From assembly GCF_004010195.1 (NCBI RefSeq), contig NW_025214056.1, positions 1 through 38,691 on the forward strand: a stretch of DNA of 38,691 nucleotides. The letters run 5' to 3'. The DNA comes from Chiloscyllium plagiosum (lineage: Eukaryota). Both the position numbers and the translations under genes were made by a program. Below the pieces are notes generated by a model. It ran no database searches. It had not been told where the DNA came from and saw only the letters and a list, made by a program, of their open reading frames with translations. Below are positions 3,571 through 36,734 of this stretch, in pieces; positions within the stretch are counted from its first letter, which is position 1, and each line of letters begins with the position of its first letter.

Positions 3571-3646
3571 TCACATCCTATTTTTACTCACGCCACTCTG
3601 TGTTGCAAAGTATAATCAGATATTTTCACAAAGAAGGAAAATAAAT

Positions 3647-10330: not shown

Positions 10331-10632
10331 GTCCCACTCTGTTCAATAACCTGGCACTGCCTGTTCCTCCTACTAGACATGAGTTAACTCCCCTCTTCTC
10401 TTCAATCACACTGCATGCTGATCTACTGCTGTGAGTTCACCCTCCACCACCTTAACAATAGAGTCCCTATCACTACTGCTTGCCTACACTTAGACTCTCC
10501 CTACTGTACAACTGTTGTCGTAGCTCTACAGAATTGCCAGTAGTTTCTCAACTTAGTATTTAGTCAGATAATCTCAATAAAACACTGTTTTCTCCATTTT
10601 AAAAATAATCATTGAAGCTTGTGTGGACTCAC

Positions 10633-10689
10633 CATGCCATCCAAATATCTATTCTGGTCACTAGCTTCCTGGTCAATATCCAGAGCAAT
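10633..10689 (-). CDS. BET1L: BET1L exon 3
   Basis: ttcaagcAG|ATT...ATG|GTGAGT; 57 nt encoding IALDIDQEASDQNRYLDGM (recalled human: LALDIDRDAEDQNRYLDGM). Confidence 0.97.
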
Positions 10690-13932: not shown

Positions 13933-14024
13933 CGATTTGAGCCGGGACACCTTACTGGACAAATTATCGGTCATTCGTTTGTTTTCTGCATCAAGCATTT
14001 GGTCCACTGCACCTGAACCGAGGC
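13933..14024 (-). CDS. BET1L: BET1L exon 2
   Basis: tcttcgtttcttccAG|GC...TCG|GTTTGT; 92 nt, phase 1 start; encodes (G)LGSGAVDQMLDAENKRMTDNLSSKVSRLKS. Confidence 0.97.
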
Positions 14025-14372
14025 CTGGAAGAAACGAAGAAATAAACATATAAATGGCAAACATACAAATACAGACTGTAGATGGAAGATGGAATTTGGA
14101 GTCCCAGGTTACCCTGAACCCTCAATGTTGACCCCAAGTTAACACTGATCCTTCAACCACAGTCAGTCATTTTTCTCACTTCTTCTCCTATTACCTTGCT
14201 GCGTTAATGGATTGCAAGGCTTGCTGCAAACACTGACCATCTTTTGAAGTAATTTATTGGCTGTAAAGCAATTTCGGATGTCCTGAGGAGAGGAAAGTTA
14301 TATCTCAGCTGGCGTTTATTAGAATCATACAAAACAGGAAACTGCTCATTTCCTGCTTTGGTGTAGGTAATT

Positions 14373-15300
14373 CATAGAATCATAGAGTCCTACAGCACAG
14401 AGACAGGTCCTTTCACCCAAATTGGTCCATGTCAACCAAAACACCCACACACGCTAACTCCATTTCTCTGAACTTGGCCTATATCCTTCTAATCCTTTCC
14501 TAGCCATGTATTTGTTCAAATGCCTTTTAAATGGTGCTAATGTACCCATCTCAAACACTTCTGCTGGCAGCTTATTCCATACACATAGTATCCTCAGGTT
14601 CTCTTTTATTTTTTCCCCCTCTACTCTTAAATTCATGCCCTGTTGTCCTAGATTCCTCTCGATTGGGAAAAAAGCTGAGTGAATTCACCCTATCCATGAT
14701 CTTATACACCTCTATAAAGGTCCCCCCTCAGTCGCCTATACTCTAAAGAAAACGTCCTAGCTTGTCCAACCTCTCCCTATGACACAGACCATTCAGTCCT
14801 GGCAACATGCTTGTAAATTTCTTCTGCACTCTTTCCAGTTTAATAACATCCTTCCTATAACAAAGACACCAAAACAGAACACAATACTCCAAGAGCAGCC
14901 TCACCAACATCCTGTATAACTGCAACATAACTTCCCAACTTCTATACTCAATACCCTGATTGATGAAGGCCAGTGTGCCAAAAGCCTTCTTCACTGTCCT
15001 GTCTGCCTGTGACTCCACTTTTAGAGAACTGTGAACCTGAACTCGGAGATCCCTCTGTTCCACTACATTCCTTAAGGCCCTACCATTCACCATGAAACTC
15101 CTAGCTTGATTTGGCTTTCCAAAATGCAAGACTTCACACTTATCTATATTAAGCACCATTTGCCATTTCTTGGCCCCCTTCCCCAGTTGATCATGGTCCT
15201 GCTGTAATTTCTGATAACCTTCCTCAGAAATTACAGCACTGTCCATGATACCGCCTATTTTAGTGTCATCAGCAAACTTACTAATCATGCATTGTATATT
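14373..15300 (-). mobile_element. CR1-clade LINE 3' fragment with RT C-terminal ORF remnant
   Basis: ORF 14743-15288 begins ISKFADDTKIGG (RT YADD-type motif) and continues ...KCEVLHFG...QRDLRVQV...LEYCVLFW; catagaatcatagagtc tail at 14373. Confidence 0.92.
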
Positions 15301-15930
15301 CAGACTGCTTTTCCACTAAATGGTAGCTATGTTTTACCAATTTATTACTTTAACATGCTGGAAGTCTACACAAGTAGCTCCCAGCATGGCAATTTCTATT
15401 TCAAATCTTGTATCACTTATTAATTACATACAATATACAGTCAATACACATGTCTAATGCCACTGATCTGTACCTGTATTCATGCTCCATATGAACCTTT
15501 TCTCACTTTACATTATCTCATCCTATCAGCATGTCCTCTTAAGGTTCCTTGATGGATAAAAAAGTACTTCATTATCCATCTATTAAGTCACCATTAATGG
15601 ATATCTGAATACATGCAATTCTCAATAGGTTCATTACTTAAAAAATATCCAAGTGAATAATTAGCAAAAATAATGTTAAACAAGAGATCTGGTTAATGAT
15701 ACAGAAGCTAACAATGATAATCAGAACAATCCATGCCATAACATTAATCTCAGCTGAATTACATTTTTAAAGAAACTGGAACAAAGAAAAACATTAGGGA
15801 TTCTAGTAATGATGGCCAAGGGGATTTCTCACTTTCTCAACTACAGACAAAGAGCAGGATTGTTGCCTTGTTCATCTTAATTTTGACAAGAGTGGGTGCC
15901 ACAATGTAAATAACCTTCTTCTGTTTTGTA

Positions 15931-16157
15931 GATATTTTTAATCAACTTATTCAGACATGTTGTGACACAGCTCTGGAGGGGACTTGGAACATAGACCTTC
16001 TGGTCCAAAGTAGGGACATTACCAATGCTTCACAAGACCCCAAATCGTATTGCCCCTGTTGTTTCCAAGTGGTCACCCATCCAAATAGAAACCCGGCCTG
16101 CATAGAGTCCAAGAGCAGATGAGATTGGGTGTCTTCAGACTGGTATGATCGTAGGCA
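15931..16157 (-). mobile_element. Composite 5S rRNA-derived + tRNA-like SINE with 13-bp TSD
   Basis: A 5S-like head (16156-16043) is fused to a tRNA-like module (16040-15931); TSD cttctgttttgta at 15918-15930 and 16158-16170. Confidence 0.75.
16043..16156 (-). pseudogene. 5S rRNA-derived sequence (near full length, diverged)
   Basis: Reverse complement GCCTACGATCATACCAGTCTGAAGACACCCAATCTCATCTGCTCTTGGA...TTGGATGGGTGACCACTTGGAAAC aligns along vertebrate 5S rRNA, with many CpG-type substitutions. Confidence 0.85.
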
Positions 16158-16430
16158 CTTCTGTTTTGTATGATACTATTAAATACCAATGCTTGCATAC
16201 AAGTTGCAATTCAACTTACATAGAAAGTGTTTATAGCAAGGAGACAACAGCAATATGAAAATCAAATCTGCATGAACCAAAATCTGCTCTCTTGGTGCGC
16301 ACTGAGTGGGATACAGTGCAATGAGATTAACAACTGACCCACCATAGGGCAATGACCAACATATTGTCCAAAAAATTGTTATAACTGCATCTTCTGATTT
16401 TCTTTCTGCAGGATGGAACAACACCTTATT

Positions 16431-16781
16431 ACAGCGGGGTGAGCTTAAAAATGTTTATAAAATCATGAGGGGTATAGATAGGTTGAATAGCCAAGGTCTT
16501 TTTCCCAGGGTAGGGGAATCCAAAACTACATGACATAGGTTTATGGGGAGAGGGGAAAGATTTAAAAGGGACCTGAGGGGCAACATTTTCACACAGAGGG
16601 TAGTGCATGTATGGAACAAACTGTGTGAGGTGGTGGTGGTGGTGGACATAGGTACGATAGGAAGGATTTAAAGGAATATGGGCCAAATGTTAGCAAATGG
16701 GACTATATCAGTTTAGAATATTTTGGCGCAGACAAGTTGGACTAAAGGGTCTGTTTCCATGCTGTATAATTATGACTGTAT
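16431..16781 (+). mobile_element. CR1/HER1-like LINE 3' end
   Basis: tttataaaatcatgaggggtatagatagg...gggtctgtttccatgctgta; same family as 5305-6035. Confidence 0.85.
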
Positions 16782-18539
16782 AAGGAGGAAACAGCTGCAA
16801 ATCACGAGTATGATTACCTCAGAAAACAAATAGTCTATAAGGAAATTAGTATCTTCTTAAGAAAGTGTTTTAATGCAGCTTGTCAAACTTCAAAATGATA
16901 GAAAAGAATTTAGAATCATCCAGGACTAGAAAAGTAGCCATTCACACTGCTGTAGCCCTTTCTACCACATTCAGTCTTAGTTTTCTCTATAGTCCACAAT
17001 GGAGAACAAGGCAAAGAAACCTAATTGACCAAGTTCTGATTTACTATTCAATCCGTAAACTTCAATTATATTGTGTCCTTTTAAACTAAATAGTTGACTT
17101 TAGCTTCTATGTTCTTGGGAATTGCCAGATCAAAAAAATTCCAGGGTCCACCCAGTTCACCATCTACACTGATACAGTCTTATCATCTAACTATTACAGT
17201 TATTGACTAATCACAGTGATCAACCTTTATTAATGAGATTACAGCAGACTAAACATTAGCAGTGGAAAAAATAAGTTCAAAGGCATCTTTTCTTCCTAGG
17301 TTCTCTACATTTACCACGTCACGTCTCAAATTACTCAGTTCGATTATTATGGTTATATTATAGGCAATGGTCTAGCCAGTGACACCCACATCCCATGACT
17401 GAAAGACCTTTTTAAAAATTACTGAACATAAAAGAGAAGTTGATAGAATAGGTACCAGGAGACAGTAAAACCAGGGAACACTGTTTAAAAATAAGTGTCT
17501 TGCTGTTAAGATGAAGATGAGGAAAATCTTTTACCATCAGAAAGTCATTAGCTTCTGGCATTCTTTTCGCCAGGATCAGTAAACTTATTCAATGCTGCAT
17601 TAGATAGACCTTAGATAGATAAAGGAGTCAAGGTTTACGAAGGGACAGACAGGAAAGTGGAATTGAGACCACAATCAGATCAGCCACCATCTTATTAAGT
17701 GAAAGAGGTCTACTCCTGCTCCGAAGTCATAGAATCATACAGAAAGAAGTTACTTGGTCTATCAAGTCTGTGGTACAAAGAAAATGAGCCACCCAGCTTT
17801 ATCTCACTTTTCAGTATATGTCCATAGTTCTGTAGATTATAGTATATTAAGTCATGTGCTCTAATACTGCTGAACCTCCTTGCATATAAATAGATGCTTA
17901 AGCAAGATACTGACAAATTAGTGTAGCTGTACTCATGCATTAATCATGCCAACAAAAGAGAGCATTTAAATAAATTGCTGTACTGCTCATGTCATCCAAC
18001 TGAGATTGACATTTAAAAGTTACACATGGTTAATGTTTCATTGACCACACTAAATGGAATAGCCCTTTATTAATGAAAACTATTAACTGTGCAACAGCAA
18101 AATCACAAAGCAACATTATTGTTCAGTTCAAGATGAGAAGATAGTGTCTTTGGCTCAATCACCTTCACTTTACTGACATAAGATTGGACACATTTACATC
18201 CTTGAATTATCACATGGACAATAGTGAGGAGAACACAGGTGGAGCTTAGATGTTAAAATGAACAAAGCAGAGCCTGAAGGTGGTGACGAGGAGATAGGAA
18301 TTTCAAAGAAAAGTGAATTCAGGCAAAGGAAACAAACTTAAGATAAAATTACTATTAATCAGCTATTCCTGAATCTCAGAGGGATCAGGTAACACGATGC
18401 TACTTTCAGAGGCATTATGGAACAAGTGAATTTATTTCAGAAATGTAGCTCACCTCAACAGATAGGAATGAGTTCAAATCTCAAGAAACATTTTAGTCAA
18501 GAAAACTGCATTATATTCACATGAAAAGTCTGTAAGATT

Positions 18540-19236
18540 TATGTGTCAAGAATACAGGGAATAGAAAGGCAATTTATTATTTAAATTGAGAGAAGCTTCA
18601 GTGCAGATGGTTCTCACTGACCTTATGCATGAATCGAAGAAAATTAATACGTAGGCACAGCAGGTAGTAAGGAAGGCAAAAGGAATTTTCCACTATTGCT
18701 AAAGGAAGAGCATGTAAAAGTAGGTTGCTGCAATTGTACAAGAAATTAGTGAGACAGCACCTGGAGACTGCATCCAGTTTTGGTCTGCTTACTTGAAGAG
18801 AGATGGAGTTACATTGGAGATAGTTCAGATGAGGCTTATGAGAGAGAAAGCAGCTTAGGCCTATACTCTCTACAGTTTAGAAAAGTGAGAAGAGATCTAA
18901 TTGAAGCATAGAAGATGCTAAAAGGACTGACAAAGTTGGCTTGTAAAGATGTTTCCTCGTGTGGCAATCTAGAATGGAGGTCATTGTTAAGGTAGCAGAT
19001 TTAAAACCAATATGAGGAGAAATTATTTCTCTCAATGGGGTCGTGAATCTGTGGAATGCACTACCCCAGAATGCACTGGATGCCAGGACACTGAGTACAT
19101 TTAAAGAGATACACAGATTTTTAATTTGTAATTAGTAATGGGTTTAATGGATAGCAGGCAGGGAAGTAGAGTGATTGTATTGAATGGCTTTGAAGTTTTG
19201 TGGGGTTGAATTTCCTGCTCCCACTTATGTTCTTAT
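18540..19236 (+). mobile_element. Degraded CR1-clade LINE 3' fragment
   Basis: Remnants such as cacctggagactgcatccagttttggtc, gagatctaattgaagcatagaagatg and gtgaatctgtggaatgcactacccc; ttatgttcttat tail. Confidence 0.75.
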
Positions 19237-20321
19237 AAATGTGGAGACTGAGACAAAATTGTGATGTAATATTCAAACAGATGAGAATTGGAGTGGACCG
19301 TTTCTATCATTTTATATGTTTCCAGGGATTGAACTGTATCAGCATATCAGACGTTGCTGCTACATCAGAATGTCCAGTTTATTGTGTAAAGTGGAATCTC
19401 TTGTTTCACAGCCCACTAATACAAAAGAAAGACTTACATTTATACAGCCACTTACAATGCTTCAGCCAAAGTACTTTACTTGCTTCAAACAAACTCCATT
19501 GTCTTTGACACTTTACTACCCAAGTAAAGGTCCCTCATTGCTAAGGGATGGAATTATTAGCGAGAATGTAGAAATATGAAACATCAGGTAGATCAAATCT
19601 TTGATTTCTAATTCCATGCCATGCAAACATCTGAATTTTAGGGAACTTTAGGTTTGTCTCTTCCATGGTGTCATGTTTTGGTATGAATACTTCAAGGGTT
19701 AGGCACAACATGATATGTATAAGGATTGCAATCCAACATGGGGTCTCTATGTAGGGTCGACTACCTTGTCAAATAGTCTGCATCTCATGACTGAGCATTA
19801 GCCTCCAATGGGCATGCAACCCAGATCAACATCACAACCAAAGGATGACATCATCTGGCTTCACAAGGAAACCATGACAACACAGATTCCTGACAAAACA
19901 CAACAAAGTGGTACACAATGTGCATCTGTAAATGTGAGTCAATTGGACCAAACTTCGAAGACCACTGTGAGGAGGATTGAAAATACTGCAAAGTAGCATC
20001 ATTAATCAATTAAGAAAAAAAACTGTTAGCCAAAAACTGAGACAGTTTCCAAATACATCTCAAATCAGATCAAATTAGTGAACAATTAATTGGCAATTAC
20101 CTACAAAACACAATTAAAGGTTTCTTCAAATCAAGGAAGATTGGATAGATCATAGAGCAAAATGCTGGACTGAGCAGCTTTGGGTGTTTGAGAAGGTTTA
20201 GCATTTCAAAAGGTTCAGTATTTCAAATCTCATCTGTACTGAGGACACATTAGTAAGCTTTAAAATACCGAACTGAGCAATTCCATCTTTTTGATTTTCA
20301 GTCTGTGCCAAGATTTCAAAA

Positions 20322-23300
20322 ATGCATCGCAATGTGGAATTATTCTCAGTGAGCCTCATAAAGATGACTGCTGAGGAAGATGAGGATTCTCGGAAGAAAA
20401 TACTGAATAGTCTATACATTCTGGGATGTCACCACCCAGAGATGGTGTTAACTGTCTGTCATGACTATCTGTCTCACCACAGCACATTGACAGGTCTACA
20501 GGGGGCTGTAATTTTCGACACCATGACAATGATTACCAAAAAAACACTTGAACAAATTAGTGAAGGCCTAGCACAAAACATTCTCTCATTGGCTGCACTA
20601 TGGATTACTAAATTAACAGGAAGTCAAGCTGACAGCCAGGAAGCTGCAAGCAATCTCCTAGTTACCATGAGTTTCAGGTTTATGGATCAAGTTCTCCAGT
20701 TGACGATGGAGAATTTAAAGGAAGGGAATGTTCCAAATGCATACATGGTGAAAACTTTGACCAAAATGTCAGCAGAAAACACGCTGGTCATGATGCCTTT
20801 TCTGAAATCTATTATAGGGACAATGATTCCAGCTCTTTTCGGAGTTAAACAGGATGAGTTGAAAGTTGTATTTGCTGCAGCACTGGGAAGTTTTAGTAAG
20901 AGCATTCTGCTCTACCTGGAAAATACTGAGAAAGCCTCAGACCTGACAGTGACAAAAGACTCTTTCTACTCTGAGATTAGCACTGTCTATAGCACATTCT
21001 TCAAGGTGTGGCTTCAGAAGGAGCCTTCTAAACTGAACATCCAAGTAGTGGAAGCTTTGGGATACGTCAGCTGTCTGCTACCCAAGGACAAATTTGAGAA
21101 AGAACTTCCCAAGATGATTCCAGCCATCCTCTCTCTCTACAAGAAACAACCTGGGCACTTTTCCATTACAGAGTGTCTATGCCGGTTGCTAGATGCTGCT
21201 ATGGAGATGGGACATCCTGGGTTGAAAACACAGCTGGATAATCTGCTTAATAATCTCCATCAGCAGATATGCCTCTCGGTAGGGGCAAATAACCATCATA
21301 CCACAAAGAATCACACAGAGATCCTTCGCTGTTTCATAGTTCTAGCCCCAATTTATGCAGATTCACTAGTTGACTTCCTCTTACTCAAGTTAGAGAATAC
21401 AGAACAACAAATGAGAGTGGGAACGCTCACTGTGCTGAGGCATCTCATCAGTTCAGTCTCCTCGCACTTAGAGAGGAAGCAAGTTAAGATTGTTGCTGCT
21501 ATTAAACCAATGCTCCAGATGAATTGCACTAATCATGAGAAGAAGTTAATTGCCCAAGTAATATGTGCCATGGCCCAGCATGGTTACCTTGAGCCAGAAG
21601 AAGGAAAGGCAACAGTAGAATTCCTCATCCGACAGTGTGCTGCTTCCATTGATTCAACCACCTCAGAACTAACCAACCATCAAGAAGAGCAAGTAACAGA
21701 TGAAGACCTGGCCACAGTGTGTGAAACAGTGATGTTTATGATCACAAATACTGTGAAGATGGAGGATGCTCTCTGGCCATTCTTATTGGAATGTGTCACA
21801 ATGACCCAATATACCAAAGCTCTAACAACAATCTGTAACTGTTTAGCACATCTGGGAAAGAAGAAACCACAAGATATTGGTGAAAGGTTTTCCCTTATTT
21901 ACAGTGGGAATACCAATGTCCCTAGAGCCCAGGCACTGCTGGCCCGGCTCCTCCTCGTGTCTTGTTGCCCAAATCAAGGAAGAAGCAGAGCAGCTGCAGC
22001 ACTGAGACTACTGCAAGTCCTAAATTTTAATATTCATCCAGCAACAGCAAGCTGGTGGGATGAGGAGCTCCCAGCATTAGTTGACCAATTACAAGGTCAT
22101 TTAAAAGAGAGTCTACATGAACAGGAATGGGAAGAGAAACTATTGCTGTTCCTGTCAAAAACTTTGAATATCATTGATGATGAGGAATGGACAAGTCAGC
22201 TCTGTGACGAAATGTATCAACAGATTGACACCCATGATCGTTCTCCACAGGAGAAGGGCTTTCTCTATAAAGCTCTTGGGATAGTGCTCAGTCAGGTTCG
22301 CAAACGCAATATAAAGGAGGAACTTCACCAAATGTTACTGAGCGTGCAGCACAATGAGAATGCAGAGAGAGAGGGGGCAGCCATTGCCATCGGTTTCTGT
22401 GCCATGACCCATTTCAATGACACCCTCAGCAGTCTGGAGGAGTTTGCCAATTCTAACAGAATTATGAGTACTAACAGTTTTTTCCATATTAACAATGACA
22501 AGCCTGATGTGGATCTGGATCAAGCTAAGAGCACATTAGTCCTGTGCTATGGGAACATGGCACTCTATACACCAGAAGAACTACTGTCTAGAATAGAGTC
22601 TCACATTCTGTCAGCTATCAGTGAATTTATTACAAGTGGGAATAGAATAAAGGCCAAACCCAGGGATCTTACACTAAAACTCAGCATAATAAAGGCCGTA
22701 ACAATGATAGCCAAATCACTACACTCAAATTATCAGAGTGTTCCTTTCAACTTTATCAGAAAGAGAGAGCTGCTCATGTACATGCAGAATCTTATACAGG
22801 ATGAACCACAAGAGCTGCTACACGGTCCTGTTCGAAAGTTAGCCATGATCGCCTGTCTACATCTTGTACAACTACACACTGAATCAAACCAAACTGATAT
22901 CCTAACTTCCCAACTAATCCATACCTGCCTGACTAGTACTTTCAGCATTCTCCCTTTAGAACTAGATAAGGACAAAGACATGGCTAGCAGCAAAGATAGT
23001 ACAACACTTTATATCCAAACCATCACTGCCTTGCAAGAACTTCTGAAGGAAATATTACTTCAGGACCTGTCATCTGAAGGTCTTCAGGCCATGTTTCAAC
23101 AATTTGAGGAATGGATCATTTCAACAAAGGACTATGAACGAGAGCGAGCTATGGACATGATTTTAGTATTGCTGAAATATATGGAGAAGCTTGATACATT
23201 TCCATTAATTAACATGGGTAGTTTGATTGGACAGATAATGCCACGCTGTGCAGACCCGTTGATTTCTATTGGGCAGATTGTCATTGATTGTTTGTACACC

Positions 23301-25160
23301 ATCTTCAGCATTCAGTTATCCTATGGAGGCACAAATCTGGATCAGTACAAAGAGCAGCTAGAGGTTCTGAAATCAGTCAGACAAGCGTTAGCTAATCCGG
23401 ATACTTCAGTCCTCCTACAAACATGCTTCCAGATCACAGAAGTTATTTCAAAGTGTATGCCCCATGAACAGCTGGGCAACCTATTGCTCATGGCCTTCAA
23501 GGGACTATATGATCAACAGCTTAGCTGTTCCAGTGCAGCTGCTATCCTCATTAAAACCATCATTAAAAAACATGGCAATGAACTCCAGAATCAGGTACCT
23601 GAATTACTTGAAGTGTTGAGGAGTCACCTGCAGTTAATTCGTTGCAAAGAGGCAAAACTTTCAGTTCTGCGGAGCATTGCTATTCTAGCCAAGCAAAACA
23701 CAGCAGCAGTTGTATCATGTCTCCTCACTTATCCTGTCCCTTTAGATATGAACACCACTGAAATATGGAGATCACTAGCTGAGGACACAGATTGTGCACC
23801 AATTACAATTCAAGTACTTTTAGACACACTGAACAAACAGTTACCAACTGGGGAAAAGAAAACCTATCCCATTTATGAGAATGTGACACTATATCCAAAT
23901 GCCGAATCACTGGCTGTTACTTGTGCTTTATACCAGATAATAAACACACCTACATCAGCACAGGCTGTAATCCAATTGTTTCCAAAGTTATTCAGCACTC
24001 TATTAATCCACCTCAATTCCTCGATTAATGTTTATCTACCTAAAGTTCTTGCTCCTGATTCTGAAGCAAGGCAGTTTGAATTTGTAGTTGAGTCTCAAAC
24101 ACCAAGAAGTGGGGACATGTGTATGAAATGTGCAGAGACTCTAATGGACTTGCTGGATCGGACAGGAAAACAACAAGTGCTAAACTGCTTGATAGAAAAT
24201 GGAGGTTGGAACCTTATGATGGATATCCACAAATCAGTAATGGGGATAGTCTTGCTTGTCAAAACAATGGCCAGTTACACTGATACCAGTTTGACTAGGA
24301 TTATAGATGAACTAGCAGAATTCATGCCCAGCCTACAAGAGTGTCAGAAAATTACTGTGGCTGCATTCTTTGGAGAGCTTTTAAGATCATCACTGGTTTT
24401 GCAGCTGCAGCTCACTGATACCCTGATGAACAGATTACTTCAATGGCTACCTAATTCTTCTCCAGTTCTCCAATTATTGTGTATCAAGGGGCTAGATAAC
24501 ATCACAACTGGAGCTCCTCAATGCATTGAAAAATACTCTCGCCAAGTGCTATATTCAATCATTTCTATGATGGGATCCAGGGAACATAACAATGAGGTGC
24601 TGATGTTTGAGGTCCTCTCCTGCCTGGATAAACACTTGAATCTGTTAAAAACCAGTACTATCAAACCCTTTTTAATCAAAATCCTCACTGCAGTACAACC
24701 ATTCTTTGAATTTACCAGCGATAAAGTAAGGGCTGAAGCATTTACTGTGTTGGGGAGCTTAGCCAAGTGTGGAACCAGAGATCCCAAATCCTGCTTGTGT
24801 CGACAAATCCATTTGAATCTAGTTCGCTTGTTACTGCAGCTCGATGGAAACAGCAAAGAGGTTTCTAGGTCTTGCAACTCGACACTGCATTCAGTCATCC
24901 CTCTTATTATTTCAGCGAAGGCTGTCTCAGTGATTGTGAAGTACTTAGAGGAGCCAACACTAAAATACATGGAGTTCCTGAGGGTCATATCACAACAACT
25001 CATCAAAGACTTCCCTGAAAGAATCCACGGTTATATCATGGACTGTATGCCCTACTTCAACAATCCAGAGGAACAGCTCAGAGCAAACGCAGTCACCTTG
25101 TCAGGATTGTTTTTCCAACGCCCAGAAAAACATTTCAGATCTGTCCAGAGATTCACCTGA
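20322..25160 (+). CDS. Intronless MROH1-like (maestro HEAT-repeat) protein, 1612 aa; probable retrogene nested antisense in BET1L intron 1
   Basis: Single uninterrupted 4839-nt ORF. It is colinear with MROH1 as I recall it: LPKMIPAILSLYKK, EILRCFIVLA, RVGTLTVLRHLI, AMAQHGYLE, LWPFLL, AAALRLLQVL..NIHP, EWEEKLLLFL, PQEKGFLYK, AEREGAAIAIGFCA, LVLCYG, PRCAD, GGWNL. AATAAA lies 3 nt after the stop (25164-25169). Confidence 0.93.
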   Translation: MHRNVELFSVSLIKMTAEEDEDSRKKILNSLYILGCHHPEMVLTVCHDYLSHHSTLTGLQGAVIFDTMTMITKKTLEQISEGLAQNILSLAALWITKLTGSQADSQEAASNLLVTMSFRFMDQVLQLTMENLKEGNVPNAYMVKTLTKMSAENTLVMMPFLKSIIGTMIPALFGVKQDELKVVFAAALGSFSKSILLYLENTEKASDLTVTKDSFYSEISTVYSTFFKVWLQKEPSKLNIQVVEALGYVSCLLPKDKFEKELPKMIPAILSLYKKQPGHFSITECLCRLLDAAMEMGHPGLKTQLDNLLNNLHQQICLSVGANNHHTTKNHTEILRCFIVLAPIYADSLVDFLLLKLENTEQQMRVGTLTVLRHLISSVSSHLERKQVKIVAAIKPMLQMNCTNHEKKLIAQVICAMAQHGYLEPEEGKATVEFLIRQCAASIDSTTSELTNHQEEQVTDEDLATVCETVMFMITNTVKMEDALWPFLLECVTMTQYTKALTTICNCLAHLGKKKPQDIGERFSLIYSGNTNVPRAQALLARLLLVSCCPNQGRSRAAAALRLLQVLNFNIHPATASWWDEELPALVDQLQGHLKESLHEQEWEEKLLLFLSKTLNIIDDEEWTSQLCDEMYQQIDTHDRSPQEKGFLYKALGIVLSQVRKRNIKEELHQMLLSVQHNENAEREGAAIAIGFCAMTHFNDTLSSLEEFANSNRIMSTNSFFHINNDKPDVDLDQAKSTLVLCYGNMALYTPEELLSRIESHILSAISEFITSGNRIKAKPRDLTLKLSIIKAVTMIAKSLHSNYQSVPFNFIRKRELLMYMQNLIQDEPQELLHGPVRKLAMIACLHLVQLHTESNQTDILTSQLIHTCLTSTFSILPLELDKDKDMASSKDSTTLYIQTITALQELLKEILLQDLSSEGLQAMFQQFEEWIISTKDYERERAMDMILVLLKYMEKLDTFPLINMGSLIGQIMPRCADPLISIGQIVIDCLYTIFSIQLSYGGTNLDQYKEQLEVLKSVRQALANPDTSVLLQTCFQITEVISKCMPHEQLGNLLLMAFKGLYDQQLSCSSAAAILIKTIIKKHGNELQNQVPELLEVLRSHLQLIRCKEAKLSVLRSIAILAKQNTAAVVSCLLTYPVPLDMNTTEIWRSLAEDTDCAPITIQVLLDTLNKQLPTGEKKTYPIYENVTLYPNAESLAVTCALYQIINTPTSAQAVIQLFPKLFSTLLIHLNSSINVYLPKVLAPDSEARQFEFVVESQTPRSGDMCMKCAETLMDLLDRTGKQQVLNCLIENGGWNLMMDIHKSVMGIVLLVKTMASYTDTSLTRIIDELAEFMPSLQECQKITVAAFFGELLRSSLVLQLQLTDTLMNRLLQWLPNSSPVLQLLCIKGLDNITTGAPQCIEKYSRQVLYSIISMMGSREHNNEVLMFEVLSCLDKHLNLLKTSTIKPFLIKILTAVQPFFEFTSDKVRAEAFTVLGSLAKCGTRDPKSCLCRQIHLNLVRLLLQLDGNSKEVSRSCNSTLHSVIPLIISAKAVSVIVKYLEEPTLKYMEFLRVISQQLIKDFPERIHGYIMDCMPYFNNPEEQLRANAVTLSGLFFQRPEKHFRSVQRFT

Positions 25161-25169
25161 TATAATAAA

Positions 25170-26150
25170 TATTACAACTTGATATCAGGGAAAAACCAAC
25201 ATAGGGCTTCAATACTTGACTTCCCCCTTTACACACGTTACAACGTGGAAGTCAAACCTCTGCTAATTAAACCAAACACCCAGCAAAGCTCATCTCGCCT
25301 CTGTTAAAATATGAGTGACAGAGAACTACTAATTTCCACTATTTAAAGAAAAATAACAATTTCTTTTCTTAACTCTAACAGTGAACACAAAACAACTATT
25401 CACAAATCCAAGACCTCCGTTTCTTAACTAAATATCTGATCTCAACTCTATAAAAAATATGCTGTTACAATAACACACTTACTAAACATTACATTAACTT
25501 AATCTCAAGGCCACACAGTCTCTGTCTTCCCCGCTGTCTTCAATCTTCTGGCTGCTGATCTCCTGAGTAGGTTTCACACAAAAAGGTACCTTTGATTAAG
25601 AGTGTTTTCTAAAGTCTTTGAAAGCAAGATGTTAGATGTGCAGTTAGCTCTCCAGCTCCAAAGCAGTTGCTCGCTCTCTCTCAAATTTTCAAAATACCAG
25701 GTTTCTATACTGCCCATGACACATTAAATTCTTATAATTTGATTCGTTTCCAGGTGTCAAAACATTACAATTCAAATGGGCATTGGCTTCTGGTATCCTG
25801 GACATAATTTAAACTTGTTGGTTAAATTCAAATTGTTGTCAACCAACAACCAAAACTCAGGTATCAATTTAATAGCCAATTGTTACATTTGGTGTAGCCC
25901 GATCTTTAGCTGACAGCTGTGGCCGTACTTTGAATTCAGAGAAGCACTTTCTTTCTTACAGTGACCATACATGCTTTCAACTTCGTTTCAGACAAGCTTT
26001 CCTTCGAGAGGAGGCTCCAAATTGTCAGGGTCCCCTTCCATGCACGCCCTAATCCTCAGACTTCCCTTGACTACAGGGGTCCCAAATCTCAGCTCTCCAC
26101 CTATTCTCTATAAACCCAAATAAATGTGGCTACCCGTCATTTTATCATTT
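25170..26150. repeat. Unclassified interspersed repeat, possibly a solo LTR
   Basis: Abrupt compositional change right after the MROH stop; tattacaac start resembles a decayed TGTTAC LTR terminus; termini and TSD not confirmed. Confidence 0.25.
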
Positions 26151-26444
26151 TACTAATTATAAATGAATGTCAATTTGTTACATTCAAACTGCACCCACAA
26201 TTGTGACATTAGCTACATTTCATGCTCCCAGTTTATGAATTCCTTGCTGCAGTATCATATCAAATTTTCTAATGGAATTAATCCAAAATCTGGCCCTATA
26301 CTGGTGAGTGGAACAATAGGATCCTCTATACTAGTAATGCAGATTTGCCAATGTCACCAATGCAAACAGCCATACAGATTAATGTGATCACACCCTTAGT
26401 GCAAGTCCATCTCACTTCAAATAATTTGTAACCTAGAATTGTAC

Positions 26445-27179
26445 AGTTATTGAGACATATAGCATGGAAACAAATCTTTCGGTCCAACTCATCCATGCCA
26501 ACCAGATATCCTAAATAAGTCTTGTCCCATTTGACAGCACTTGCTCATTTCCCTCTAAACCCGTCCTATTCACATACCCATCCAGATGCCTTTTAAATGC
26601 TGTAACTGTACCAGCTTCCACCTCTTCAACTGGCAGCTCATTCTGTACATGCACTAGCCTCTACATGAAAAAAGTTGCCCCTTCAGTTCCTTTTAAACGT
26701 TCCCCTCTCACCCTAAACTTATGCCCTCTAGTTTTGGACTCCCCCACCACAGAGAAGAGACCTTGTCTATTTTTCCTACCCATGCCTCTCATAATTTTAT
26801 AATCTCTATAATGTCACCCTCAACCTCTTGACTCTCCAGGGAAAATAGCCCCAGTCTATTCAGCCTCTCCCTATAGCTTTCAAACACTCCGACCCTGGCA
26901 TCATCCTTGTAAACCTTTTCTGAATCCTTTCAAGTTTCACAACATCCTTCCTATAGCAAGGTTACCAGATTTGCATTCAGTATTCCAGTAGTGGTCTAAC
27001 CAATGTTCTGTACAGGCGCAACATGACTTCCCAATTCCTACATTCAATGCACTAACCAACAAAGGAAAGCACACTAAACGCCTTCCTCATTATCTTATCT
27101 ACTTGCGACTCCACTTTCAAGGAACTATGAACCTGCACTCCAGGGTCTCTTTATTCAGCAACATTCCCCAGGACCTTAC
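26445..27179 (-). mobile_element. CR1/HER1-like LINE 3' fragment
   Basis: Reverse complement of the 5305-6035 family (agcatggaaac...ccaactc...tgcactccagggtctctttattcagcaacattccccaggacctta). Confidence 0.9.
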
Positions 27180-27281
27180 AGAGTGAAGAAAGAATTACTG
27201 AGCACCACTCACGTTCCACAGATCAAGAAATAGGAGGATGCCATTCAGTCCCTCAAACCTATTCCACATTCAATTACATTA

Positions 27282-27472
27282 AAAATCACACAACACCAGG
27301 TTATAGTCCCACAGGTTTATTTGGAAGTTCTAGCTTTCAGAGAGCTGCTCCTTCAACAGTTACCTGATGAAGGAGCAGCACTCTGAAAGCTAATACTTCC
27401 AAATGAACCTTTGGGACTATAACCTGGATGTGTGATTTTTAACTTTGTCCACCCCAATCCAACACCAGCACC
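27282..27472. mobile_element. Fold-back Penelope-derived insertion with hammerhead-like core
   Basis: Arms aaaaatcacacaacaccaggttatagtcc.../...ggactataacctggatgtgtgattttt; core CTGATGA-AGGAG(cagca)CTCT-GAAAGCTA at 27364-27392; ~30-nt tail; duplication tccacattcaattacatta at 27263-27281 and 27473-27491. Confidence 0.85.
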
Positions 27473-27858
27473 TCCACATTCAATTACATTACGGCTAATC
27501 TGTCACTCAGCTCCATTCACCCATTTTTTCTTCAAAACCCTTAATAAACTTACCAACAAAAATATCAACCTTAAACTCCCCAAAATTTCAATTTACCCAC
27601 AGTATTCACAGCCTTCGGGGAGGCAGGATTTGTACTGTACTTTGTGCAAAGAATTTTATTCCTAAAAGGCTCTTATTTTAAGATTACATGGCCTTATGTT
27701 GAATTTCTCTCAAAGAAAATTAACTAGAGTTAAATTGCAAATTCTGAAGGTGAGGAATAAACTGACCACGCAAACTGATCCGATCTGTTAATGAGTAAAT
27801 ATACAATTAGTGGAAGACACTTAAGAAATATTTGGTCTAATTCAAAACCAGTACATGC

Positions 27859-28069
27859 CACGTTCTCCCCGTGTCTGCGTGGGTTTCCTCCGGGTGCTCC
27901 GGTTTCCTCCCACAGTCCAAAGATGTGCAGGTCAGGTGAATTGGCCAGGCTAAATTGCCCGTTGTGTTAGGTTAGGGGTATGGGTGGGTTGCGCTTCGGC
28001 GGGGCGGTGTGGACTTGTTGGGCCGAAGGGCCTGTTTCCACACTGTATGTAATCTAATCTAATCTAATC
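27859..28069 (+). mobile_element. 5'-truncated V-SINE (HE1-like)
   Basis: V-domain cacgttctccccgtgtctgcgtgggtttcctccgggtgctccggtttcctcccaca, LINE-like 3' end gggccgaagggcctgtttcc, (aatct)n tail. Confidence 0.92.
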
Positions 28070-28119
28070 ACTCAAAGGAAGAAGCTGAGTCATGTAGTGA
28101 AGGAATCAGGACTAACAAA

Positions 28120-28284
28120 TGATTTGACGGTGCTGGTATTGGACTGGGGTGTACAAAGTTAAAAGTCACACAACACCAGGTTATAATCTAACAGGTTTAT
28201 TTGGAAGCAGTAGCTTTCACAGCGCTGGTAACCACCTGATGAAGGAACAGCAGTCCAAAAGCTAGTGCTTCCAAATAAATTTGT
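28120..28284. mobile_element. Fold-back Penelope-derived insertion (same family as 27282 and 37064)
   Basis: Tail plus arm, core cac-CTGATGA-AGGA...TCC-aAAAGCTA-gtg at 28233-28267, short second arm; duplication aggactaacaaa at 28108-28119 and 28285-28296. Confidence 0.8.
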
Positions 28285-28458
28285 AGGACTAACAAAGATG
28301 ATACTAAGTGTAAAAGATTTACACTTAGTGAAAATGGAATAGACTAAGAGCACTACAAAGATCGTGGAAGGATGAAACAAAAGTCATGAGAGTCAAAAAC
28401 AGACAATCTTGCAAGTAATTTCAAAGCTAATAGTAAAGGTTTTTAAAAATATAATTAT

Positions 28459-28774
28459 GATTAGATTACTTACAGTGTGGAAACAGGCCCTTCGGTCCAA
28501 CAAGTCCACACCGACCCGTCGAAGCACAACCCACCCAGACCCATTCCCCTACATTTACCCCTGCCCCTAACACTACGGGCAATTTAGCATGGCCAATTCA
28601 CCTGACCTGCACATTTTTGGACTGTGAGAGGAAACCGGAGCACCCGGAGGAAACCCACGCAGACACGGGGAGAACGTGCAAACTCCACACAGTCAGTCGC
28701 CTGAGGCGGGAATTGAACCCGGGTCTCTGGTGCTGTGAGGCAACAGTGCTAACCACTGTGCCACCGTGCCGCCC
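28459..28774 (-). mobile_element. Full-length V-SINE (HE1-like)
   Basis: Reverse complement GGGCGGCACGGTGGCACAGTGGTTAGC (A box) ... GGTTCAATTCC (B box), then the V-domain and a LINE-derived tail. Confidence 0.95.
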
Positions 28775-28844
28775 ACAAATTATAGCAAATTAGATTTATA
28801 TTGCACCGTTAACATTACTAAAACTATCCCAAATACTTCACAGG

Positions 28845-29510
28845 AGTGGACCAGACCAACCTCTCTTAAATTATATTGAGAAGATAGTGTAGTCCCCAAC
28901 TTTCTCTTATTTTTAAAGGCAAGTGTTTCAGATGCATACAATTGGTCAAACTGCCAGGTTTAAAGCAAAACACACTTTATTCTTACACTATATTTAAAGT
29001 ACAAACAAAATAAGAATAAATAAAAATAAGAATAATAAAAACAAAATAAGAGTAACTAACTCTTAAAATATTTAAGATAATACACATGTTAATTACCACT
29101 GATAAACTGTTCGAAGATAGTAATATTCCATAAAGGAGACCCTTGGCAGAGTCAAATTCAGTAAAATAGATTGTCTCACATGCAACATTTCTCCCTGTCC
29201 AGGAGGAAAGAACATCAAAAGAAAATTCGAAGTGAGACAGAACTTAAGTGTTTTGCTGTAGTAGGGGGAAGTATATAACAGATTCCACACCTTAACAGCT
29301 TCTGAAAGCTAAACTAAAACGCTGGGTTCTGTGGGAGCTTGACCTCACCCCATCATGCTACTTCTGTTGTTCCAACTTCAAAAACCCCAAGGCCTCACAA
29401 GCTGTTTAATTTATTGGTTTTGAACAAACTACTTGGTACCTCTATCTCAACCTCTCTTCATTAAAAAAAAAGGACAAAATATACACCTGTTAAAGCCACA
29501 CTGTTGTCAC
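28845..29510. repeat. Unclassified insertion, possibly a solo LTR, interrupting an L2-like tail
   Basis: L2-like 3' sequence (gatttatattgcaccgttaac...cttcacagg) stops at ~28845 and resumes near 29510 (...gggagggaattccagag); the insert ends ...gttgtcac. Confidence 0.3.
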
Positions 29511-29736
29511 TAAAGCACTACCAAATAAAAGGTGACATACGGCCAAATAAACAAAAGATTCATCAAAGAGGTTTTAATTAGTATCTTAAGGAGCTGGAGA
29601 CATTTGGGAGGGAATTCCAGAGATTATTGTTCAAAATGAAAGTATATGGAATTGGCATGGATTGAGAACTGATTAGCAGATATGAAATTAAGAATAATTG
29701 GGTCTTTTTTTGGAGTGGGGCATCAGAGTATCAGTG

Positions 29737-29942
29737 TTGAAAAGTGTGGTGCTGGAAAACCACAGCAGACCAGGCAGCATCCGAGGAGCAGGAGAATCGA
29801 CGTTTCGGCATAAGCCCTTCTTCATGCCCGAAACGTCGATTCTCCTGCTCCTCGGATGCTGTTTGGCCTGCTGTGTTTTTCCAGCACCACACTTTTCAAC
29901 TCTGGTCTCCAGCATCTGCAGTCCTCATTTTCTCCTAGTTTT
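29737..29942. mobile_element. Fold-back Penelope-derived insertion with 15-bp TSD
   Basis: Arms ttgaaaagtgtggtgctggaaaa...gaatcgacgtttcgg / ccgaaacgtcgattc...ccagcaccacacttttcaa; ~40-nt tail; TSD atcagagtatcagtg at 29722-29736 and 29943-29957. Confidence 0.9.
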
Positions 29943-30602
29943 ATCAGAGTATCAGTGCTTGGGTGGCCCAACTATTTCATATATCAACAATATGAATAAG
30001 GGAATGAAACGTAATATTTTCAAGCTTGCTGACAACTCAAAACTAGGTGGAATTGTGAATTCTGAGGAAGATGTAATGTTTTAAAAGGATTTAGACAGGT
30101 TAAGTAGGCAGCACGTAGTAAATTTAATACAACGTAGCTAGGCATGAAATTATTCATTTCGGTAGGAAAATGAATGATGTAAGTTTTATTTAAACAGGAA
30201 TAGATTGGAAATGTTATTGTACAAATGGTCCTAGACATACTTGCATACTAGTCAATTAAATTAAGCATGCAGGTTTGCAGCAAACATTTAGAAAGTCAAG
30301 TGTATTTGGCCTTCACTGCAAGAGGATTTGAGTGAGGATGCCTTATTGCAGCCATACAGCGTCATTGTGATGCCACATTTGAAATACTGTATGTAATTTT
30401 GATATTCTTTCCTAAGAAAGGATAGGTTTGCCACAGAGGGAATGGAGCAAAGGTTTACAAGACTAAGTCTTGTAATGGTGGGATCACTATATGAGAAAAG
30501 ATTGGGTCAACTAGGCCTGTATTCACAGGAGTTTAGAAGAATGAAAGGGAATCTCACTGAAACTTGTGGAGCTTGCACAGAACTGGACAGACTAGATGCA
30601 GG

Positions 30603-30791
30603 GCTGAAAACGTGTTGCTGGAACAGCGCAGCAGATCAGGCAGCATCCAGGGAACAGGAGAATCGACGTTTCGGGCTTATGCCCGAAACGTCGATTCTCC
30701 TGTTCCCTGGATGCTGCCTGACCTGCTGCGCTGTTCCAGCAACACATTTTCAGCTCTGATCTCCAGCATCTGCAGTCCTCACTCTCTCCTC
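30603..30791. mobile_element. Near-perfect fold-back Penelope-derived insertion with 15-bp TSD
   Basis: ~70-bp arms meeting at gacgtttcgggc-TTAT-gcccgaaacgtc; ~45-nt tail; TSD cagac(t/a)agatgcagg at 30588-30602 and 30792-30806. Confidence 0.9.
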
Positions 30792-33059
30792 CAGACAAGA
30801 TGCAGGCACAATGCTTTCCCTGGCTTTGGAGGAAGGAGGGGTGTGTGCATCTAGAAAAAGCGGTCATGGTCTCAGGATACTGGGTAGGTAATTTAGGATC
30901 GAGATGAAGAGAAATTTCTTCACACAAGAGTGGTCATTCTGTGGAATTCTCTGCCACATAAGGCTGTAAAATATAGATTTTTAAATACTAAAGATGTCGA
31001 GGAGTATGGTAAGAGGGTGATGATCACGCTGTTGAAATAGATGATCAGCCATAATCACATAAACAGTAAAGCAAGTTCAATGAGTGAATAGCATACTACT
31101 ACCACTTTTTTCAATGGAAGAACATCAATTGTTATTTCCCAACGAAACCGATGATCTGTGGGCCCACAACCATTTCCTATAGCTGCTGAGGTGTGGGATC
31201 CCGTACCCTCCAGAAACAGGAGGCCTGCTTTCATGTTGGCCGGGTAAGTTAATGTGGAGACACATTGTATAATGACTGTTACACTACATGTTATTCTGAC
31301 AATTCTCAAACGCATTTTTAGAGTTTTAAATCCCAAGATTGTCCACTAAGGGTTTAAATATGGCCCTGTCATACGGAGATCACGAAAGGTGTAAAAATGC
31401 AATCCATCAAATCCTTCTCTAACTGCCATCACCTACTATTCAACTTTAACTGGCATCAGGAAAACTTAAGCATTTCCAATATTACCCCAGTTTTCCTCCA
31501 TTCCTAGTCTTTTCCTGCATTAATGCATCCTGAATGACCACTCATCCTTGTTCTCATTTGTCCTGCCTGTTCTTTCTAAATAATTTCATGTCTTTTATTT
31601 GCCTCCTTGTCCTGAACTTAAATAACTGAAGAGCAGCCAATCATGCTGAGAGGTCAACCTATTGACCAATATCCTGGGCAATGAGTGAGTGTCGGCTGCA
31701 AAACCGACAGGCCAAGACTAACACAGTTGTAAGCTGCTTCAGGCGAGTGTTATGAAGATATGGAGTATGCTTGGTATATAGGATGTTGTGCATCAACAAA
31801 AGAGAAGCAAGACTAATAATCAAAAGTAATCTTCCTTCGGATCATAATGAAATCAGAAATCTGCATTGCCGTTGGGGCACCATCTGCAATGCTCCCATCA
31901 TTCATGGCAAGAAACTAAGTTTAATTATCACTGTCTCCTCATTAAATTATGCAAGTACAGCAACAGACAGAATTACCCAGTGTGTAATTACATTTACTCC
32001 ATGTCACTGAGCAACAGCAAATGCATTCTGTTCAATAACTGGACATTCCAATCTAACTTGCAAAGTTTCTACAGAGGTCTCTGAAGCAGCAACTACAATT
32101 CTATTACATTTAGCCACTTGAGCCTTCTCCACCATTTTACAAAATCCTAGCTGATCTTATTGTAAACTCAATTCCATGTTCCAACTAACCCCCGATAACT
32201 TTTTAGCCCACGCTTATCAAGAACCAATTCACTTCTCCCTTAAAAACATTCAAAAGATTATGCTTCTACTACATTTTTAGGAAGTTTCAAAGATCCTTAA
32301 AGAAAATAAATTTGCCTTCACCATCTTAAATGGGCAACTCCTTATTTTTAATCAGTGACCCCTCATCAACAATGCTCATAGATCAATGTGCAAGTAAACT
32401 CAGTGTAGCCATAACTCAAATCAAAATTAATGCGTCAATCTTTATGGAAGTCAAAGCATTGCTCATCACTGACAGCAACGTCCCATTCTCCAAAACCATC
32501 ACTTTTCTAGTTTCAGATTGATTCAAAGTTATGAAGTAATGAATGATGTCATGGCCCAGATGTTCCAATCAGGTCATAATCAATATTTCCACTTAGAATT
32601 AGATTAAAACCTACTCACTTAACTTTAGGTGTCTCCTATGCTGGAAGTTCCTTGACAGGTGTTTCTTGTTATGAATCTATCCAAGAACCCACAAATCCAG
32701 GAGTGAAGAGAATCAGTATGGAAAGCACCCTCCCTTTTGCAGTTGTCAGTTTGGTCATTTAAATGTTCCACAGCATTTCCAGCCAGAATGACAGCTGCAG
32801 TGAAAGGGTAAGTATGTAAGTTAAGTGTAGAGTTAGGATGTCAATGAGTGGGGTGGGCAAGGTGCCAGGTAAGTGATGTACACTAGGGTAGATCACAGGT
32901 TCAGTCCAGGGAAACGGCTTCAGGCTGCCAGGAATGGAGGGGGGTGCTCTGCAGTGTTGGATCACGGAAGGCAAGCAGAGGGGTGATCATGTCCAGAGGG
33001 TTCAATGGCCCTGAAAAGATTCCAGTAACAGTGGTGAGGATGTGCTCCAGAAGTAGCCC

Positions 33060-33907
33060 CTAGTCAAGCAGCAAGAAAAAAAAAACACCTACCTGGCAAT
33101 TGCACAGGTATGTCTGTCCACAAAAAGCAGAAAAAAATTCAATCAGGCTAATTACTGTCTCTGTCAGTCTACTCTCGATCATCAGCAAAATGATGGAAGG
33201 GTTTATCGACATGTTGCTATTAAGCAGCAGTCGACCACCACACTAACACTCAGTCTGGCTAGGGCCAAATCACAGTCAAATATGGGTGAAAAGACCGAAC
33301 TCCAGGACAAGTGGGACAGGGATTGACTGTCCTTGACACCAAGGCAGCATTTGACCATATAAGATATGAATTAGTCCTAGCAAAATTGGAATCAATGGGA
33401 ATTGGAGAAATCTCTCCACTGATTGGAGACATATCCACACAAGTGACTGTAGCCATTGGTACTCAAGTAACTCAATCTAAATATATCACAATTCTGGTCT
33501 CCCTGCTATAGGAAGGATGTTGTGAAACTTGTGAAAGGGTGTTGCCAAGGTTAGAGGGTTTGACCTATAGGGAGAGGCTAAATAGACTTGAGCTATTTTC
33601 CCTGAAGCATCGGAGGCTGAGGTTTATAAAATCATGAGGGGCATGGATAGGGAAAATAAACAAAGTATTTTCCCTAGGTTGGGGGAGGTCCAAATCTAGA
33701 GGGGAAAGGTTTAAAAGGGACAACTTTTTCACACAAAGTGCACATATGGAATGAGCTGCTAGAGGAAGTGGTGGAGGCTGGTACAATTACAACATTTAAA
33801 AGGCTTCTGGATGGGAATATGAATAGGAAGGGTTTCAAGGCAAATCTGATCAGCATGGACAAGTTGGACTGAAGGGCCAGTTTCCATGCTGTATATCTCT
33901 GACTCTG
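33060..33907 (+). mobile_element. LINE debris: older RT fragment (~33060-33490) followed by a CR1/HER1 3' end (~33494-33907)
   Basis: ORF 33311-33511 LDTKAAFDHI...LAKLESMGI (RT domain 'D..KAFD'); 3' part matches the 5305-6035 family. Confidence 0.8.
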
Positions 33908-33945
33908 AAGGAGCTTCTTACTGTAGGGTCCTAGGCCAAACATCT

Positions 33946-34106
33946 CAATAAAACCCCAAAAAACTGTGGATGCTGTAAATCAGAAACAAAACAGAAATTG
34001 CTGGAAAAGCTCAGCAGGTCTCAGCACTTGTCAAGAGAAATCAAAGTTAATGTTTCGGGTTCCATAATCCTTCCTCAGAATCTCCAGCAATTTCTGTTTT
34101 TATTTC
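33946..34106. mobile_element. Penelope-derived insertion with short inverted arm and 10-bp TSD
   Basis: aaacagaaattgctgga.../tccagcaatttctgttt arms; minus strand reads CTGAGGA-AGG...CCC-GAAAC; TSD ccaaacatct at 33936-33945 and 34107-34116. Confidence 0.75.
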
Positions 34107-34379
34107 CCAAACATCTTTAGCTGCTCAACCATTAGGTTAGCAGTGGGAATATTTGCTGATGCACCAGTGAACTCCTCAAATACTTAAGCAGATTGTCTTC
34201 ATAAGCAATGACACCTGGACAGCATCTCTGTTTGGAGTGATATGTATATATTGTGAACACAGATAAGCAGCATTGGAGTGCATGATATAAGGCAGGATGA
34301 AAATAAAGAAAATATACCAAATAAATAATTATCAGGAAAGCAAAGAGAAGGTATGCTGTTGGAGGAACAGAAAATCAAA

Positions 34380-36715: not shown

Positions 36716-36734
36716 CTCGGTTCCTCTCCGCCAT
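36716..36734 (-). CDS. BET1L: BET1L coding exon 1 (start codon)
   Basis: ATG GCG GAG AGG AAC CGA G|GTGAG: 19 nt, phase 1, joining in frame to the 92-nt exon 2. The four exons total 111 aa, the recalled length of human BET1L. Lies beside a GC/CpG-rich promoter region. Confidence 0.88.

Follow-up and report, generated by a model that had tools for sequence, protein, structure and literature searches.

The window analysed here is a stretch of 38,691 nucleotides from the bamboo shark Chiloscyllium plagiosum, a source confirmed by three other frames of the genome with 100% identity to public proteins of that species, and comprises an entire unplaced contig (C100651); it carries the gene BET1L on the minus strand and, within the first intron of BET1L and on the opposite strand, an intact intronless gene derived from MROH1 (Table 1). 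Read directly from the sequence and its translation, the nested frame has zero internal stops between its ATG and its TGA, and the original prediction, which had described a 4.8-kb stop-free, intronless MROH1-like frame antisense to BET1L, proved exact in coordinates, in strand and in the length of the product. The DNA around the frame had been described as decayed, and this was borne out as well: BET1L intron 1 is otherwise rich in decayed repeats. The longest other stop-free frames in it measure 190 and 128 codons, which excludes chance as the source of the nested frame. The window also contains near-palindromic repeats of 150-300 bp that are likely to represent a common shark non-autonomous element.

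Table 1. Features of the window (positions are those of the 38,691-nt stretch)
Feature	Position	Strand	Basis
Intact intronless MROH1-derived gene, 1612 aa (ATG 20322, TGA 25160)	20322..25160	+	ORF, Pfam, alignment
PF23210 HEAT_Maestro_2 region, aa 253-913	21078..23060	+	Pfam; invariant-residue comparison
Splice-acceptor-like site about 20 nt 5' of the ATG; possible junction with a noncoding first exon	20286..20302	+	sequence
AATAAA hexamer a few bases 3' of the stop; candidate polyadenylation signal	25164..25169	+	sequence
BET1L coding exon 1, 19 nt	36716..36734	-	match to P0310 and P0335 N-termini
BET1L intron 1, 22.7 kb, host of the nested gene	14025..36715	-	exon mapping
BET1L alternative exon within intron 1	15473..15840	-	spliced onto exon 2 in RNA assembly X2
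BET1L exon 2	13933..14024	-	protein match, RNA
BET1L exon 3	10632..10689	-	protein match, RNA
BET1L exon 4, coding part	7574..7740	-	protein match, RNA
ODF3/CIMAP1-like exon, sperm-tail PG-rich repeat	717..857	+	same strand as nested gene
Near-palindromic repeats	1050-1195, 3646-3952, 27279-27442, 29732-29904, 30594-30762, 37099-37260		84-94% self-complementary

The joints between BET1L exons 2 and 3 and between exons 3 and 4 were spliced in both of the assemblies X1 and X2, which we regard as RNA because their BET1L contigs are spliced; exon 1 was placed because it matches the N-terminal residues of BET1L proteins annotated in bamboo shark and chimaera, the RNA stretch excluding the joint between exons 1 and 2, and exon 4 has a single match in the genome. 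The alternative exon of 367 nt is preceded by a canonical acceptor, and its use would change or break the BET1L N-terminus. The antisense orientation would let the nested gene occupy the intron without ending the BET1L transcript. On C16, a RIC8 gene starts at 32.149 Mb and an ODF3-like gene has its 5' exons at 32.136-32.137 Mb, with a gap of 500 N between them (32143414-32143914). The window begins with the next ODF3-like exon in a phase compatible with the exons on C16, and because the flanking ODF3-like exons continue into it in this way, the contig most likely fills the gap, which would give the order ODF3-BET1L-RIC8A, as in human. The genome holds three RIC8-family genes (C16:32.17 Mb, C19:51.7 Mb and C39:3.8 Mb).

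The product of the nested gene passes the curated Pfam cut-offs for four Maestro/MROH families, in canonical order and along its length (PF23210, 616 bits; PF21047, 197; PF23221, 37; PF23227, 33), and the PF23210 region is the part of the protein that best retains the residues invariant in MROH1. In the alignment, the start and stop positions are common to the shark and ray orthologues. The copy had been called full-length, which is right to within its last step: the protein is near-full length, but the last HEAT repeat of canonical MROH1 (about 30 aa) is missing. This repeat is absent from the window protein, from the C16 protein and from the chimaera protein P0285 and present in the other four copies, and its loss is old, because the start and the early stop are common to rays. 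An in-frame stop sits 30 nt upstream of the ATG. The acceptor-like site at 20302 and the AATAAA hexamer after the stop are no more than suggestive signs of gene structure; acceptor-like sites occur on the plus strand of the window at about 1.5 per kb, and one X1 contig crosses the one at 20302 unspliced. Neither a poly(A) tract nor a target-site duplication was visible by eye around the gene, and at its age such remnants would be unexpected. A sequence search of the PDB with the nested protein returned 0 matches and thus no solved relative, and the protein itself is absent from the public protein collection searched for C. plagiosum.

The nested gene is an MROH1 paralogue. The canonical multi-exon gene, which groups with MROH1 of other cartilaginous fishes, lies on C5, where a genome search, as the original prediction had proposed, located the separate multi-exon parent; in the shark, canonical MROH1 does have introns. 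With the N-terminal 493 aa as query, 10 matches were obtained in the genome, of which six are long frames without interruption and four are short exons on C5, and an independent Pfam search recovered the identical six frames and at least nine C5 exons. The parent was traced through 28 separate exon matches to the full-length relative P0021 and a first coding exon of 22 nt; some 30 exons are thus visible within about 80 kb, and assembly gaps hide the remainder. The nested frame continues unbroken through the parent's intron positions, the first of which follows after 22 nt of coding sequence, so that the genome holds both the multi-exon parent and a copy without introns at those positions, as is characteristic of a retrogene. 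Its divergence from MROH1 is as strong as had been anticipated, with 40-41% identity to the parent lineage. The public model of canonical MROH1 (P0086; C5:121.26-121.28 Mb) is short, at 1395 aa, and its residues 922-1242 seem to read into an intron beside assembly gaps.

All six intact intronless genes were read out in full and encode 1612-1654 aa from the aligned start. Besides the window gene itself on C100651, they lie on C16 (61% identity to the window protein), C100739 (38%), C13 (36%), C40 (35%) and C45 (35%). Their GC3 ranges from 43% to 94%, and the copies have therefore long resided in different genomic settings. The nested gene and its nearest sister most likely belong to the same chromosome (C16), 36.7 Mb apart, and homology between their flanks stops about 12 nt beyond the coding frame. 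The copy on C100739 is not nested in the gene that adjoins it, which we take from its translated exons to be glycogen phosphorylase; the exons of that gene (C100739:31400-35300, minus strand) end about 2 kb away, tail to tail with the copy. In public annotation, nearly all proteins of the intronless family are named 'MROH1' or hypothetical.

Phylogenetic analysis placed the intronless genes and two chimaera proteins in one clade, with support of 100/100 in an 18-row IQ-TREE analysis (LG+G4, no mixture model; most teleost rows, duplicate orthologues and short copies omitted), and two larger FastTree sets, with 45 and 39 proteins, recovered the same clade; flags were raised for long branches and for uneven composition, both of which could help to pull the intronless copies together, and intron-exon structures were read in the C. 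plagiosum genome, the clade members from chimaera and other species being known from proteins alone. In these trees of vertebrate and invertebrate MROH1, the sister group of the clade is the multi-exon MROH1 of cartilaginous fishes (99/99), and bony vertebrates branch outside the two. AU tests rejected a topology in which the parent is held with the C100739/C45/chimaera-B branch (p-AU 3.6e-5) and one in which the window and C16 genes arose by a shark-only duplication (p-AU 1.3e-8). The chimaera protein P0285 lies at the base of the branch that unites these two genes.

Orthologues of the nested gene were identified in Chiloscyllium punctatum (98% identity, 1612 aa), in a catshark (77%, in a model that lacks about 65 N-terminal residues) and in the rays Narcine, Rhinoraja, Mobula and Hypanus (56-59%). 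The idea of a narrowly lineage-specific gene is thereby ruled out, since orthologues are common to sharks and rays, and the gene was therefore duplicated, before sharks and rays separated, from a retrogene that already lacked introns. Among the 120 matches listed there was no window-clade protein for Carcharodon, Rhincodon, Stegostoma or Hemiscyllium, nor one from the chromosome-level annotations of Leucoraja and Pristis; the absence may reflect loss of the gene or its omission from annotation. At the level of chromosomes, to which placement relative to BET1L was resolved outside C. plagiosum, window-type and C16-type proteins share one chromosome in Narcine, Rhinoraja and Hypanus, and BET1L lies on the same chromosome as the window-type protein in Narcine and as C16-type proteins in five other species.

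The proposal of a retrocopy thus stands as regards retro-origin and great age and is not supported as regards the route, a single retrocopy made straight from MROH1 into the BET1L intron: all six genes form one clade, and because the nested gene is a late branch within it, its template was an older retrogene rather than the parent. An independent retroposition of multi-exon MROH1 into BET1L intron 1 would account for an intronless, nested, antisense gene in a genome that retains the parent, and for flank homology to the sister that ends so close to the frame, but the position of the gene deep in the intronless clade largely refutes it; moreover, the C-terminal truncation is common to the C16 sister and to chimaera P0285, which is on a different scaffold from chimaera BET1L, and we consider such an event extremely improbable. 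The dispersal of copies over at least six contigs, together with dozens of partial ones, might alternatively mean that the gene travels as cargo of a mobile element. This idea deserves very little credence: neither the window nor the 28-30 kb read around the five other intact copies contained an intact frame for a transposase or polymerase or any ends in common, the orthologues remain on the BET1L chromosome in rays, and the block that contains the short copies is a patchwork of decayed LINE pieces with no clean end.

Chimaeras split off about 400-420 million years ago, and the divergence of sharks from rays followed about 270-300 million years ago. We propose that in an early cartilaginous fish, before the chimaera split, reverse transcription of one spliced MROH1 mRNA placed a copy in the genome, and that the intronless copy was retained and duplicated further, which would have given rise to three lineages and to the six intact genes of C. 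plagiosum. The nested gene would be a later daughter that separated from its C16 sister after the chimaera split and before the shark-ray split, in a last step that may have been either a DNA-level copy or a second retroposition, this time from the retrogene's own mRNA. This origin, retroposition before the chimaera split followed by duplication with the nested gene as a later daughter, is in our view very probably correct.

That the frame remained open under purifying selection, as had been proposed, is supported by comparison with the nearest paralogue on C16. A pairwise codon model of our own (GY94 type, F3x4) gave a dN of 0.26, a dS of 0.89 and a dN/dS of 0.29, with 2dlnL of 290 against neutrality; the ratio was 0.18-0.30 across all unsaturated pairs, the saturated C100739-C45 and window-C100739 pairs being excluded, and the indels are in frame throughout, with nine of nine gaps in the window-C16 alignment being multiples of 3. 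When frame decay was simulated with substitutions only, just 4 of 300 runs still had an open frame once divergence reached 2.5%, and 0 of 300 did at 5%; set against the dS of about 0.89 to the nearest paralogue, this excludes an open frame by chance. In a DNA run from a related species (X8), one contig spans 19051-25283 and thus crosses the nested gene. Eight pieces were listed in this comparison, the seven outside the gene being mostly intron, and the 6.2 kb across the gene contain 11 gap letters and 127 substitutions (2.0%), versus 112 gap letters and 200 substitutions (2.6%) in the 7.8 kb of the other pieces. Gaps are thus strongly depleted and substitutions modestly so, and the latter may mean that constraint has lately been weaker than the ratio of 0.29 indicates for the long term.

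Depth over the nested frame in X1 and X2 was 0-4, no higher than the intron background, while BET1L exons reached 23 and 185, respectively; these assemblies, whose tissue is unrecorded, neither show nor exclude expression of the nested gene. A raw single-cell run (X10) had 0 reads over the whole 19.8 kb, including BET1L, and hence has no bearing on the matter. The lack of a transcript above background, the absence of the gene from several shark annotations among the matches listed and the modest deficit of substitutions in X8 would fit a copy that was long functional but is now, in sharks, silent or under relaxed selection and decaying toward a pseudogene, as would the 33 residue changes that separate the nested protein from its C. 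punctatum orthologue, compared with 21 for the C16 sister. However, the frame is open and of equal length in the two bamboo sharks and gaps are strongly depleted, and the few simulated frames that survived 2.5% divergence without constraint did so even though indels were left out; we therefore regard such decay as quite unlikely. The paralogue at C45:6956616-6961544 differs at 7% of residues between the congeners and at about 6% from Hemiscyllium (P0133 versus P0300 and P0134), compared with 2.0% between the congeners for the nested gene and 1.3% for the C16 gene; its larger divergence may reflect fast evolution, old polymorphism or hidden paralogy.

Change in the nested protein is unevenly distributed along its length. 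A set of 12 canonical MROH1 proteins is near-invariant at 253 columns, and at these the window clade keeps 63% of residues overall, with 83% in aa 501-750, 60% in the N-terminal region, 41-48% in the C-terminal region and 41% in the last 150 aa. All six window-clade proteins compared are altered at 69 of the 253 columns, and at about half of these columns they have a single new residue in common; the root-to-tip length of the nested gene is two to three times that of the parent.

Besides the intact genes, the genome contains dozens of intronless half-length copies, mostly decayed, that derive from the window/C16 branch. The C-terminal third of the nested protein has 54 matches in the genome, 48 of them outside the six intact genes and most with stops, and a DNA search gave 60 matches. 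Among 20 such stretches examined, 19 had matches, and all 19 matched the window or C16 protein best; they cover at most aa 920-1620. The sites include C6 (20.2, 28.2, 31.8, 39.7, 58.9-60.9 and 78.8 Mb), C35:35.3 Mb, C37:3.1-3.7 Mb, C34, C17, C3, C12 and small contigs. DNA identity among the copies is 70-97%, a range that suggests long-running duplication, and annotation of C. punctatum and of a catshark includes short proteins related to them. Several kilobases of decayed, interrupted LINE-like flank are common to the copies without a clean end, and for this reason they would fit an origin by DNA-level duplication. We also considered LINE-driven 5' transduction and found it unsupported, the downstream LINE pieces being decayed and interrupted, with no common end. 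One short copy (L027:3554-5764, minus strand) holds a 737-codon open frame that ends in a cysteine cluster. Such clusters follow the truncation point in chimaera P0285 and in the short family, and not in the window or C16 proteins; they could possibly serve as lipid or membrane anchors.

The abundance of C-terminal fragments from the window/C16 branch, the divergence of the C45 paralogue between congeners and the long branch of the nested gene could together point to genetic conflict, in endolysosomal host defence or in the germ line, with fast-evolving full-length copies, half-length decoys or dominant modifiers and quick turnover. The dN/dS ratios, well below 1 in all unsaturated pairs (a whole-gene measure), speak against this, and the short copies with their long decayed flanks resemble passive segmental duplicates; we judge conflict to be rather improbable. 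In its boldest form, the scenario would hold that a single retroposition more than 400 million years ago built the MROH repertoire of cartilaginous fishes, parallel to the multi-exon expansions of tetrapods and birds, and that the BET1L-nested branch changed function through newly fixed residues and a changed C-terminus and still sheds half-length copies, some with a cysteine-rich membrane-anchoring tail, in an ongoing germline or host-defence conflict over endolysosomes. As a whole, we hold this to be doubtful.

The function of the nested gene can be approached through its relatives. According to excerpts of the published reports, Dictyostelium Mroh1 localises to lysosomes and acts late in exocytosis together with WASH-made actin (PMC5450189), HPO-27/MROH1 is described as a lysosome fission factor, MROH1 acts at lysosomes in mouse cells and mouse Mroh1 is highest in testis (PMC13587356), bird MROH expansions are among the gene families with testis bias (10.1101/2023.02.19.529176), and human MRO has gonad-specific transcripts (PMC5391009). 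The product of the nested gene would be an all-helical HEAT solenoid that, like MROH1/HPO-27, works as a scaffold, assembling on membranes of endolysosomal type and helping to remodel or sever them; its binding surfaces would be re-tuned and its C-terminus changed, with use most likely in the male germ line. We lean, on indirect grounds, toward the germ line because MROH relatives are testis- or gonad-biased and because the same-strand neighbour carries a sperm-tail repeat. From the combined analyses, a re-tuned membrane-remodelling HEAT scaffold of the male germ line is a tentative reading, with a chance that falls just short of even. A factor of the same origin could instead serve fission of lysosomes or lysosome-related organelles in particular somatic tissues, for example in granulocytes, secretory cells or yolk-processing cells, in keeping with the lysosomal action of canonical MROH1 in Dictyostelium and mouse cells (PMC5450189 and PMC13587356, in the excerpts noted above), the near-full length of the protein and the invariant residues that it keeps, above all in aa 501-750. 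Against such a somatic role stand the altered termini, the loss of the last repeat and the lack of somatic expression in the two RNA assemblies of unrecorded tissue, and we think it unlikely. Retroposition before the chimaera split, combined with a germline function as a HEAT scaffold, is probably the best explanation overall.

Compared with MROH1 (HEATR7A; HPO-27 in Caenorhabditis elegans, Mroh1 in Dictyostelium, SGR6 in Arabidopsis), the nested protein shows all four of its Maestro Pfam regions in unchanged order, is collinear over about 1600 aa and falls, within vertebrate MROH1, as sister to the cartilaginous-fish gene. It differs in having no coding introns, in its location on another chromosome, in its identity of 40% and in its longer branch, as well as in its missing repeat and changed invariant positions, and its lysosomal role is putative. 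The MROH paralogues of tetrapods are known as multi-exon genes. Unlike these and the bird paralogues, the shark family is intronless and descends from cartilaginous-fish MROH1; it resembles tetrapod MROH2A/2B, MROH5-9 and MRO and the segmental expansion in passerines in its divergent, partly truncated copies and in the birth and death of duplicates (10.1101/2023.02.19.529176, in excerpt), and gonad bias is described for those paralogues and for the passerine expansion in the corresponding excerpts (PMC5391009; 10.1101/2023.02.19.529176). The parallel is inferred, our trees having been built without named MROH2-9 sequences.

Retrogenes nested antisense in introns are a known kind. Like ancient vertebrate members of that class, the nested gene is an intronless copy with an intact frame, a dN/dS below 0.5 and no tail or target duplication visible by eye; unlike them, it has 4.8 kb of coding sequence, predates the shark-ray split, belongs to a multigene family and occupies its nested position secondarily. 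Literature searches over listings and the openings of abstracts returned no description of an intronless MROH1 family in sharks, supplements and subscription journals lying outside their scope, and the main text of the VGP Phase I preprint, in excerpt, has 0 occurrences of 'MROH', although its supplementary retrocopy tables could list such loci. What is new is a 4.8-kb retrogene of this age at the root of a multigene family, one branch of which is still giving off truncated copies.

This unusually old and long retrogene bears on a family whose own biology is only beginning to be explained: the molecular job of MROH1, lysosome fission, was assigned only recently, and its paralogues are mostly unexplained. 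There is also an annotation gap: orthology assignments will be confounded by the uniform 'MROH1' label in public annotation, and the protein collection of the species lacks the nested gene. Six or more intact single-exon natural variants, conserved in sharks, rays and probably chimaeras, together with a deletion of the last repeat and a C-terminal-half form that both arose naturally, offer material with which to map the HEAT repeats needed for membrane recruitment and scission.
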